A stretch of DNA of 32,000 bases from an uncultured bacterium. GTDB lineage: Bacteria > Margulisbacteria > WOR-1 > CAVSGV01. Under the pieces are notes generated by a model. That model was not told the origin of the DNA. It worked only from the letters and a program-made list of their open reading frames with translations, and ran no database searches. A program made the position numbers and the translations under genes. Location: positions 450,001 through 482,000 of the forward strand of contig OY969425.1 of assembly GCA_963699255.1 (NCBI GenBank). The letters are read 5' to 3'. This document shows positions 12,305 to 15,872 of this stretch, piece by piece. Every line of letters starts with the position of its first letter. Positions within the stretch are counted from its first letter, which is position 1.

Positions 12305-13615
<1,311 letters not shown>

Positions 13616-13617
<2 letters not shown>

Positions 13618-13745
13618 GAAATTGGGGAATTAGGAAATTTGGAACAAAGTTTAGGAATACAGGAAAACGGGAAATTGGTTACCCATTTTCCATATCCCCT
13701 TTTCCCTAAACTCATTTCCTCTATTCCTGTCCTTCCATATTTCCT
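13616..13745. repeat. 130-nt imperfect palindrome with a purine-rich left arm and a pyrimidine-rich right arm (GGAAA-type ~8-nt units)
   Basis: Left arm 13616-13678 (47/63 purines), loop TTAC 13679-13682, right arm 13683-13745 (52/63 pyrimidines). The outer AGGAAAT/ATTTCCT, the loop-proximal GGAAAxTGG/CCAxTTTCC, and GTTTAGG/CCTAAAC are complementary. The interior pairs only with bulges. Confidence 0.7.
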
Positions 13746-13772
13746 TAGTAATAATTTTGATCGGATAAAAAT

Positions 13773-14441
13773 ATGATTAAGAAAGCCATTGTACTGCTCT
13801 CAGGCGGGCTTGACTCAACGACCACCCTCTATTACGCAAAGAGCAAAGGATATGAATGCCGCGCGCTGATATTCGATTACGGCCAGAGGCATAAACGGGA
13901 GATCCGTTCAGCGGTTGCGGTGGCGAAGCGCGCCTATATACCGTATCAGATATTAAAGATCAAGCTGCCCTGGAGGGGATCGGCGCTTCTTGATGCCGGA
14001 TACAGGATGCCAGAACGATCATTGAAAAAAATCGGCAAAGGGATACCTTCGACATATGTTCCCGGCAGAAATACGATCTTTCTGAGTTTCGCGGTTTCTT
14101 ATGCAGAAGCTATCGGCGCGAAAGCTATCTTTATCGGCGCGAACGCGATAGATTTCAGCGGATATCCTGATTGCAGGCCGGGATATTACAGGGCTTTCCG
14201 GAGCGTTATCGGCAAAGGGACGAAAGCAAAGAACATAAGGATCATAACGCCGTTGATTAAATTGAAGAAATCGCAGATAATAAAGCTCGGACTTAGGCTC
14301 GGCGCGCCTCTCGACCTGACATGGTCATGCTACAGGGGCGGAAGGCGGCCGTGCGGCGTGTGCGACAGCTGCAGGCTGCGTGAAAGGGGATTCAGGGAAA
14401 TTGTTAAGGAACCCGCGACTAAACGTCGCGGTTCCAAATAA
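13773..14441 (+). CDS. queC: 7-cyano-7-deazaguanine synthase
   Basis: 222 aa. PP-loop VLLSGGLDSTT, FDYGQRH, and the C-terminal Zn-cysteine cluster WSCY...CGVCDSCRLR. Confidence 0.93.
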   Translation: MIKKAIVLLSGGLDSTTTLYYAKSKGYECRALIFDYGQRHKREIRSAVAVAKRAYIPYQILKIKLPWRGSALLDAGYRMPERSLKKIGKGIPSTYVPGRNTIFLSFAVSYAEAIGAKAIFIGANAIDFSGYPDCRPGYYRAFRSVIGKGTKAKNIRIITPLIKLKKSQIIKLGLRLGAPLDLTWSCYRGGRRPCGVCDSCRLRERGFREIVKEPATKRRGSK

Positions 14442-14487
14442 TCATATCGGTATGAACAGTATTAGCAGAACCCATGAAGATATAAAG

Positions 14488-14513
14488 GAGCCGAGGCGTT
14501 TAGCCTCAGGCTC
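14488..14513 (+). terminator. GC-rich hairpin downstream of queC
   Basis: GAGCCGAGGC (14488-14497), loop GTTTA, GCCTCaGGCTC (14503-14513), with one bulge. No clear U-tract follows. Confidence 0.4.
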
Positions 14514-15346: not shown

Positions 15347-15360
15347 AAAAAATAGCAATT

Positions 15361-15386
15361 CACAATGACACAATGAACAACAATGT
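15361..15386 (+). repeat. left inverted-repeat arm flanking the Avd-like gene (CACAATGA CACAATGA ACAACAATGT)
   Basis: It matches the reverse complement of 15833-15858 at 22/25 with one 1-nt gap. Confidence 0.7.
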
Positions 15387-15434
15387 TGCCTCGCTTACGC
15401 TCGGCGGTTAATATATAATAATGCACAATCAACT

Positions 15435-15800
15435 ATGAAATTCGACATTAGAGACAGATCTAAAAAGTTCGCTATAAGAGTAATTAAACTTATTAATAAG
15501 TTCTCAAAGGAACTGGCTTTACAGGAGATCGCGCATCAGTTGGTCAGATCTGCCTGCTCGATAGGCGCTAATCTTGAAGAGGCAGATGCTGCTTCTTCGC
15601 GAAAAGATTTCTTCCATAAAGTATCGATTTCTTATAAAGAAGCGAAAGAAACAAGATATTGGCTTGACTTGATCCTTGAAGCAGAACTGCTTAAGAACCA
15701 ATCAAATATAAAAGAGGCTGAAGCTTTGCGCAACGAAGCTATTGAATTAAGCAGGATCTTATTTACGATTTTTGAAAAGAAGGATAAAAATAATTGTTAA
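15435..15800 (+). CDS. four-helix-bundle protein (23S rRNA intervening-sequence protein / Avd-like family)
   Basis: 121 aa. Family signature LVRSACSIGANLEEA...SRKDFFHKVSISYKEAKETRYWLDLI. TATAAT (15414-15419) lies upstream. Confidence 0.85.
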   Translation: MKFDIRDRSKKFAIRVIKLINKFSKELALQEIAHQLVRSACSIGANLEEADAASSRKDFFHKVSISYKEAKETRYWLDLILEAELLKNQSNIKEAEALRNEAIELSRILFTIFEKKDKNNC

Positions 15801-15819
15801 AGAGTAATAATTTTGATGA

Positions 15820-15843
15820 TGTCGCGGAGCGACACTTTGTTGT
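15820..15843 (+). terminator. small hairpin with a T-rich tail downstream of the Avd-like gene
   Basis: TGTCGC gga GCGACA (15820-15834), followed by CTTTGTTGTT. Confidence 0.3.
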
Positions 15844-15858
15844 TAATTGTTAATTGTG
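15833..15858 (+). repeat. right inverted-repeat arm flanking the Avd-like gene
   Basis: CACTTTGTTGTTAATTGTTAATTGTG is the reverse complement of CACAATTAACAATTAACAACAAAGTG. It overlaps a possible ribF promoter: TTGTTA 15840-15845, 17 nt, TATTAA 15863-15868. Confidence 0.7.
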
Positions 15859-15872
15859 AAATTATTAATTAA

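Follow-up and report, generated by a model that had tools for sequence, protein, structure and literature searches.

The palindrome between purA and queC of a WOR-1 bacterium is one of 12 copies of an intergenic hairpin repeat family

General features of the purA-queC palindrome

The DNA analyzed here, referred to as the window, is a stretch of 32,000 nucleotides (nt) from an uncultured bacterium of the Margulisbacteria lineage WOR-1 (GenBank assembly GCA_963699255.1, contig OY969425.1, positions 450,001 to 482,000; window position equals genome position minus 450000). It contains a 130-nt palindrome at positions 13616 to 13745, located between purA (12340 to 13617, plus strand), which encodes adenylosuccinate synthetase (PF00709, E = 6e-186), and queC (13773 to 14441, plus strand), which encodes 7-cyano-7-deazaguanine synthase (PF06508, E = 4e-73) and lies downstream of the interrupted junction. 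An exact look-up of this PurA found no record; its nearest named homologues belong to Margulisiibacteriota, Saganbacteria, and WOR-1 and share 72 to 76% identity with it. The left arm of the palindrome begins within the purA stop codon TAG (13615 to 13617), the triplet with which pairing starts at the hairpin base. The right arm is followed by an A+T-rich leader before the queC start codon (13744 to 13772, plus strand), which holds the string TAATAAT and, as revealed by a comparison of junctions, is missing in the closest relatives. No rRNA was found in the 32-kb window, and the element sits between two protein-coding genes.

The palindrome consists of two 63-nt arms around a TTAC loop (13679 to 13682). 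Purines account for 47 of the 63 bases of the left arm (13616 to 13678; 75%) and pyrimidines for 52 of the 63 bases of the right arm (13683 to 13745; 83%). The sequence AGGAAAT is opposite ATTTCCT at the ends of the palindrome, and GTTTAGG (13649 to 13655) is opposite CCTAAAC (13705 to 13711). Only about 60% of the arm positions are complementary in register, mismatches occurring every few bases. The RNA of positions 13600 to 13760 was predicted to fold into a single long bulged hairpin of -44.5 kcal/mol, compared with a mean of -34.0 kcal/mol for dinucleotide shuffles (z = -2.94; 1 of 200 shuffles was as stable). Folded as single-stranded DNA, the element reached -21 kcal/mol (z = -2.6). A promoter and terminator scan detected no sigma-70-like promoter, no intrinsic-terminator-like site, and no T-run at the window element. 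An Rfam scan of the element returned nothing at the gathering threshold, and its subthreshold matches (E ≤ 1) were only to hairpins of eukaryotic microRNA precursors, with scores of 21 to 26 bits against thresholds of 85 to 97.

An earlier note made from the sequence alone had described the arms, the TTAC loop, the purine and pyrimidine counts, and the terminal and core pairings, and these were accurate to the base. The bulged interior that it predicted agrees with the single bulged hairpin of the RNA fold, the comparison with shuffled sequence that it proposed favored the real fold, and its failure to recognize a known RNA family is consistent with the Rfam result. At the TAATAAT string, which it read as a -10-like box for queC, no sigma-70-like promoter was scored.

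A 12-copy family of inverted word arrays

A BLAST search of the genome, which is a single contig of 1,770,855 bp, with the window element retrieved partial copies, and a family hidden Markov model (HMM) was built from four seed copies. The family HMM identified exactly 12 full-length copies with E values of 1e-41 to 1e-21, the next match having an E value of 0.07. The window copy, c463611, is a full-length nhmmer match at positions 13611 to 13751 (genome 463611 to 463751; E = 2.4e-34), scoring 118 bits on the plus strand versus 54.5 bits on the minus strand; the strand assigned to an element is the orientation preferred by the family HMM. An arm HMM identified exactly 24 arms in the genome, forming 12 inverted pairs, and detected neither solo arms nor arms split by cargo. 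The existence of this 12-copy family is the strongest evidence against a chance origin of the palindrome.

All 24 arms stack without gaps and comprise four 8-nt GGRAWWNN units, a 5-nt phase shift of GTTTR (core GTTTRGG), and three to four further units. The bases GG.A are invariant or nearly so every 8 nt over the 24 arms, and some positions have preferences of their own, units 3 and 4, for instance, favoring GGRATA. A strict pattern (GGN ANNNN three times followed by GTTTRG) matched 22 of the 24 arms and nothing else in the genome. The window copy has the same architecture of two inverted arms. Its purine-rich 5' arm (13614 to 13677, plus strand; arm HMM E = 5.7e-11) contains four GGRAWWNN units, the core GTTTAGG, and three more units, and its pyrimidine-rich 3' arm (13684 to 13743; E = 4.5e-5) carries the GGRAWWNN units on the minus strand with the core CCTAAAC. 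The apical loop region between them, G-TTAC-C (13678 to 13683), is 6 nt long, contains no open reading frame (ORF), and was the shortest loop when all copies were compared.

The copies are 133 to 173 bp long, with loops of 6 to 47 nt, and the predicted folding energies of all of them, for both strands, lie between -43 and -71 kcal/mol. According to a crude ORF-based gene call, all 12 copies are intergenic and fill their spacers almost exactly, 8 of them between co-directional, 3 between convergent, and 1 between divergent genes, and 11 are directly downstream of the 3' end of at least one gene. Their orientation is unrelated to transcription (three sense and five antisense). The loops are unrelated to each other except for those of c598192 and c1299020, which have a 33-nt segment in common (94% identity). 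Given that the loops are otherwise the fastest-diverging part, this shared segment suggests a more recent copying or conversion event. The two segments are at unlinked loci (genome 598256 to 598304 and 1299083 to 1299127).

Hairpins are modestly enriched in the spacers of this genome as a whole. Hairpins of at least 30 bp were present in 142 of 600 real spacers versus 100 shuffled ones, a threshold that barely discriminates, and those of at least 40 bp were present in 62 versus 26. Among the hairpin-bearing spacers of at least 60 nt, 44 had a clearly purine-rich 5' arm and 13 had the opposite arrangement, a polarity that reads alike from both strands.

Insertion into the purA-queC junction

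The synteny of purA and queC is maintained across related genomes of the family and class. Among the PurA homologues retrieved, the three of highest identity (94, 92, and 88%) come from contigs on which the purA stop codon overlaps the queC start codon as TGATG or TAATG; on the same contigs, queC also overlaps amj, which is about 25 nt from ribF. The purA-queC spacer is 0 to 4 nt in three further genomes (G001, G002, and G012). Taken together, the overlaps in the closest relatives and these minimal spacers indicate that the gapless arrangement is ancestral. Since purA and queC overlap in the relatives, the palindrome is an insertion rather than an ancestral regulator of either gene, and the window copy was inserted into a formerly gapless junction. 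Other genomes carry different elements at the same junction, namely, a palindrome of CTCAAGR words in G005, a palindrome of ATGACAA words in G003, and a doublet resembling repetitive extragenic palindromic (REP) sequences in G004, each of which starts at the purA stop.

Two other inserts are present nearby. A REP-like element of two inverted-repeat hairpins (GAACC-GCGAC...GTCGC-GGTTC followed by GGAGCC-GAGGC...GCCTC-GGCTC) lies between queC and amj (14409 to 14513, plus strand), two genes that overlap in the relatives L182 and L183. Both of its hairpins also bracket the only IS200-type transposase gene of the genome and fill the purA-queC spacer of G004. Between amj and ribF, where the gap is only about 25 nt in L182, a gene for a PF05635 "intervening sequence (IVS) protein" (15435 to 15800; PF05635, E = 7.5e-21; TIGR02436) is enclosed by inverted arrays of ACAATGA-type words (15360 to 15860, plus strand). 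The window lineage has gained three different hairpin inserts in the relA-purA-queC-amj-ribF operon, which is gapless in close relatives.

The distribution of the family outside this genome was followed with sequence patterns. A 30-nt pattern had no match in 40 related genomes, none of which belongs to the same genus, and matched wider genome contigs only singly, as expected by chance. A 41-nt pattern matched 14 stretches in the whole collection of metagenome contigs, most of which are family members, and several of these belong to an organism with roughly 80 to 86% nucleotide identity to the window genome. Further family copies of a related metagenome organism (L174 and L180) occupy sites for which the window genome has no syntenic copy.

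Single arrays of purine-sense words (GGGAGTGA...GTTTGGG...) were also observed within reading frames in relatives (L169:1110-1225, L177:5468-5508, and L176:1664-1726). The genes holding such arrays include a ligase-like gene and a gene for an SBP_bac_5 solute-binding protein, and the ligase site of the window genome (approximately 682431 to 682451) has only a short GGGATCRG run. These in-frame arrays resemble the in-frame palindromic elements of Rickettsia.

Conservation of the arms

Locus L167, from a relative with roughly 82% nucleotide identity, is the ortholog of the region that contains the copy at 197585 of the window genome, with a palindrome in the corresponding position. The arms of the two are 82.5% identical (99/120), compared with 67.5% for the third codon positions of the two flanking genes and 47.5% for the loop, and the arms exceed the third-codon-position identity by about 3.5 standard deviations. 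The recurrence of GG.A every 8 nt and the better conservation of the arms than of synonymous sites show that the arms are maintained by purifying selection on their sequence, while the loop is free.

The two arms are systematically different from each other, as at position 44, where 9 of 12 5' arms have A and 11 of 12 3' arms have G. Non-seed copies favor one orientation by up to about 33 bits, one copy doing so by only about 2 bits. The element therefore seems to have two distinguishable ends, with part of this signal being circular because the orientation was set by the four-seed HMM. The G's of one arm never switch to the opposite arm, and their confinement to one arm argues for a sequence-specific reading of the arms or for an arrangement that keeps each arm from folding on itself.

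Relationship with PF05635 cassettes

PF05635 proteins are four-helix-bundle proteins related to Avd, the pentameric protein of diversity-generating retroelements, and have no known catalytic function. The window genome contains 10 PF05635 genes, most of which are flanked by inverted arrays of short words, with each cassette having its own vocabulary. The arms of three of these cassettes recur elsewhere in the genome, for two of them in sets that include ORF-less hairpin-bearing spacers, and those of the cassette in the window recur in at least six such spacers. In a survey of 30 related genomes, 14 of 30 PF05635 genes had flanks whose complementarity exceeded the 99th percentile of cross-pair controls and which are visibly built of 7- to 9-nt words. 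PF05635 genes are unusually abundant in this class of bacteria, as 37 of the 41 related genomes contain them, the maximum being 14 in one genome of 1.5 to 2 Mb, compared with 1 of 14 well-known control genomes.

Metagenome contig L170 carries a PF05635 gene (E = 1e-22; TIGR02436) that is enclosed by an inverted pair of matches to the strict 41-nt pattern, and a PF05635 cassette with the arm pattern of the window family, in drifted words, thus appears to exist in a related organism. A PF05635 gene is the only cargo that was found with related arms. On these sequence relationships, the window element is best described as an apparent ORF-less form of the PF05635 hairpin-cassette class, related to it as a miniature inverted-repeat transposable element (MITE) is to an insertion sequence (IS) or an ORF-less to an ORF-bearing rRNA IVS. 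The earlier note had suggested that the palindrome might be an ORF-less relative of the cassette with the Avd-like gene downstream. This suggestion is supported at the level of the class, but the palindrome is not derived from that cassette, which is located 1.7 kb downstream and uses ACAATGA-type words unlike those of the palindrome.

Elsewhere in the genome, a family copy (676338 to 676476) lies less than 500 nt from a PF05635 cassette of GGCGATA words (676907 to 677323) and an ORF6N/Rha-like gene, and this locus (L166, 676338 to 677606) is a small cluster of inserted elements.

Origin of the palindrome and alternative explanations

The palindrome is probably one member of a hairpin-shaped, non-autonomous repeat family whose spread within the genome occurred by copying, that is, an ORF-less, MITE-like member of the IVS-type cassettes. 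A number of observations weigh against this explanation. The overall identity among the copies is 60 to 76%, so there was no recent burst. None of the 12 copies is flanked by direct repeats, and comparison with the empty junction site also revealed no target-site duplication. No transposase or recombinase was attributable to the 12-copy family. With respect to the proposed link with PF05635, no ORF-bearing copy with the exact family arms was found in the window genome, in which the nearest ORF-bearing cassette (999835) has degenerate arms with 15 of the 24 invariant positions, and the loops of the family contain no remnants of PF05635 genes. The arms of L170 have the same order of four units, GTTTGGG, and three units, but their words have drifted to GGGARTGA, and only one of them reaches the arm HMM threshold (E = 1.8e-4). 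The longest unbroken helix of the window copy is about 9 bp, making it a poor substrate for RNase III.

Tests of pairing were likewise unfavorable. The complementarity of the arms was 0.61 within copies and 0.62 between copies in a first anchoring, and 0.616 within versus 0.651 between copies in the corrected one (permutation P of approximately 0.003, lower tail), so covariation was not detected. A bias toward G·U pairs was also not detected on the transcribed strand of the eight co-directional copies (47 G·U versus 44 A·C). The deficit of complementarity within copies is largely explained by the systematic difference between the two arms. Since both covariation and G·U bias are missing, there is no positive evidence that selection sees the pairing or one RNA strand.

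Of the alternatives, the one that survives best, though it is unlikely, is that the palindrome is a host RNA element, a stem-loop at the 3' end of purA that serves as a terminator, blocks 3' exonucleases, or provides a site for intercistronic processing and is selected for the expression of purA and queC. The strength of the hairpin (-44.5 kcal/mol, z = -2.9), its start at the purA stop codon, the position of 11 of the 12 copies just 3' of at least one gene, the conservation of the arms of the orthologous copy beyond that of synonymous sites, and the presence of an RNase III gene are all in line with such a role, and the REP elements of Escherichia coli are known stabilizers of mRNA. However, the element is missing in the three closest relatives, where the genes overlap, so such a function is not ancestral. 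The element lacks a T-run and a terminator-like site, one of the copies lies between divergent genes, and the orientation of the copies (three sense, five antisense) does not follow transcription. In addition, neither covariation nor an excess of G·U over A·C on the transcribed strand was observed, and what is kept is the identity of GG.A on one strand and not merely the pairing. As an explanation of why the element is present, the idea of a purA terminator or stabilizer in the earlier note is not supported for the same reasons, namely, the missing spacer in the closest relatives, the lack of a terminator- or promoter-like site, the divergent copy, and the missing covariation and G·U bias. An intrinsic terminator in the strict sense, with a GC-rich stem and a T-run, was rejected since no terminator-like site occurs at the element.

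A more doubtful alternative is that a nucleoid-associated or regulatory protein binds the arms as inverted arrays of sites in double-stranded DNA and that the hairpin potential is a by-product. Sequence is indeed kept over pairing, with GG.A recurring every 8 bp in 24 arms while neighboring positions vary, complementarity is no better within than between copies, and the arms differ systematically, as at position 44 (A in 9 of 12 5' arms, G in 11 of 12 3' arms). There is also a precedent in Geobacter metallireducens, in which opposite-strand pairs of arrays at variable distance were read as sites for IHF or HU (PMC2700814). On the other hand, no candidate binding protein was found, sites repeated every 8 bp do not keep in phase with the DNA helix, and the dozens of vocabularies in one small genome would require dozens of specificities. 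Close relatives do without the site, and the asymmetry of the arms is partly circular owing to the orientation taken from the four-seed HMM. The ACAGGGAUAC-like GGA motifs resemble the consensus for CsrA obtained by SELEX (systematic evolution of ligands by exponential enrichment), and a CsrA sponge was rejected, as no PF02599 was found in the 95%-complete single-contig genome.

Mobilization in trans by the single IS200/IS605-family (Y1) transposase of the genome, acting on a single-stranded hairpin as for REP doublets forming hairpins (REPINs) or palindrome-associated transposable elements (PATEs), is very unlikely. The only Y1_Tnp gene (1290782 to 1291270; PF01797, E = 7e-24) lies inside a palindrome of GGRA-type words. 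Y1 transposases act on single-stranded DNA hairpins, and REPINs are hairpin doublets that flank genes for REP-associated tyrosine transposases (RAYTs). Nevertheless, the hairpins immediately on both sides of the gene (GGAACC...GGTTCC) belong to a different element, which has ORF-less copies of its own (window 14409 to 14513), and the outer GGRA arrays around the gene lack the GTTTRGG core and any match to the arm HMM. The protein scores as IS200 (81.6 bits, cut-off 55) and not as a REP-associated transposase (50.4 bits, cut-off 80), and the gene may simply have landed in a preexisting palindrome. At this locus (L164, genome 1290608 to 1291245), the Y1 gene occupies a palindrome of 8-nt GGRA words, into which either an IS has landed or with which the association is functional.

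A non-B DNA structure (cruciform or intramolecular triplex) acting at the DNA level, as also raised in the earlier note, is hardly credible, for although the arms are 75% purine and 83% pyrimidine and the single-stranded DNA fold is stable (-21 kcal/mol, z = -2.6), the in-register complementarity of about 60% disfavors the extrusion of a cruciform, H-DNA requires a mirror repeat whereas these arms are inverted and not homopurine, and families of the same class use words without purine bias, such as GCCGTAAGCTGTT.

Proposed working and significance

As a non-autonomous repeat, the element would have its arms as the recognition sites of whatever copies or handles it. In the purA-queC transcript, the arms may form a long stem with bulges (about -44 kcal/mol) that would bring the purA stop codon, as the first paired triplet, and the queC leader together. 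Alternatively, by analogy with rRNA IVSs, the stem may be cut by RNase III. The genome contains an RNase III gene, and efficient cleavage of the window copy is doubtful because its longest perfect helix is so short. With either folding or cleavage, a translationally coupled junction would tolerate an insert.

A more speculative and rather improbable extension, drawn by analogy, is that PF05635 proteins are oligomeric nucleic-acid binders that read 7- to 9-nt words, one per subunit, in the manner of TRAP or HutP, with the ORF-less palindromes being trans-acting sites. Each cassette would then be flanked by arrays that its own PF05635 protein recognizes. If true, this would represent a previously unrecognized self-recognizing mobile cassette or a post-transcriptional network that colonizes operon junctions, and it would also account for rRNA IVSs and for repeats like the short tandemly repeated repetitive (STRR) sequences.

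The locus ties together three decades-old puzzles, which are the ORF-bearing IVSs of 23S rRNA, the function of PF05635/TIGR02436, and the intergenic arrays of 7- to 9-nt words (STRR sequences and those of Geobacter). An operon that is gapless in relatives and carries three hairpin inserts in one lineage provides a clean natural experiment, in which the reader of the code of GG.A every 8 nt, the excision of stems from mRNA, and the harmlessness of inserts at coupled junctions become testable. For annotation, spacer hairpins of this type should not be read as gene-specific regulators.

Comparison with known systems

Elements of this kind have been partly catalogued as rRNA IVSs, paired word arrays of Geobacter, MITEs, and REPINs, and the present variant and its links were not found in the literature searched. 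rRNA IVSs have complementary borders, a cut by RNase III midway along the stem, and an S23p ORF inside (PMC4990558). The window element also has complementary arms bordering the insert, as judged by its fold, and it resembles the IVSs in the 23S rRNA of Leptospira, Coxiella burnetii, Salmonella, and others in being a short insert whose complementary borders form a long stem. In both groups, ORF-bearing forms carry PF05635/TIGR02436 and ORF-less forms exist, the distribution is sporadic and gain-like, and the insert is tolerated within a transcript; the rRNA stem is cut by RNase III (PMC4990558), a cleavage that is putative here. In contrast to the rRNA IVSs, the window family sits between protein-coding genes, and its arms are mismatched arrays of 7- to 9-nt words instead of a near-perfect stem of 28 bp. 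It also comprises 12 ORF-less copies in one sequence family. A strict 23S rRNA IVS was rejected, as the element is located between purA and queC and not in helix 9, 25, or 45.

MITEs and REPINs, such as Correia, ERIC, and RUP elements and the REP doublets with RAYTs, share with the window family a length of 130 to 170 bp, the lack of an ORF, inverted arms, and dispersal in spacers, and they are likewise co-transcribed with their neighbors, capable of forming hairpins, and related to an ORF-bearing parent. The window family differs from them in lacking a target-site duplication and a cognate transposase or RAYT, in the age of its copies (60 to 76% identical), and in having arms that are periodic word arrays rather than unique terminal inverted repeats. 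The element is not a MITE in the strict sense, as there is no target-site duplication and no parent transposase element with the same ends in the genome. A REP/REPIN-RAYT system was also rejected, as the only Y1 gene does not reach the RAYT cut-off (50.4 versus 80 bits) and its outer GGRA arrays miss the arm HMM.

Paired octa- and heptanucleotide arrays in Geobacter metallireducens have been described as "putative global regulator binding sites" of classes 1 to 3 (Aklujkar et al. 2009, PMC2700814). Like the window family, they are multicopy and intergenic, consist of 3 to 5 tandem words of 7 to 9 nt in opposite-strand pairs at variable distance, are lineage specific without an assigned function, and are sometimes associated with IS elements (PMC2700814). 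However, they use other words and another architecture without the GTTTR phase-shift core. They were catalogued only in supplementary figures and read as IHF/HU sites, and a link to PF05635, insertion polymorphism, and a test of selection are not reported there (PMC2700814). The STRR heptamers of filamentous cyanobacteria and the TAACTGA repeats of Beggiatoaceae are also tandem 7-nt intergenic words in many lineage-specific families without an assigned function (PMC4679880). According to the abstract of the Beggiatoaceae paper, there are 169 direct sets and one indirect set (PMC4679880). These repeats thus appear to be mainly direct tandem arrays (PMC4679880), whereas the window family consists of two inverted arrays in a fixed architecture.

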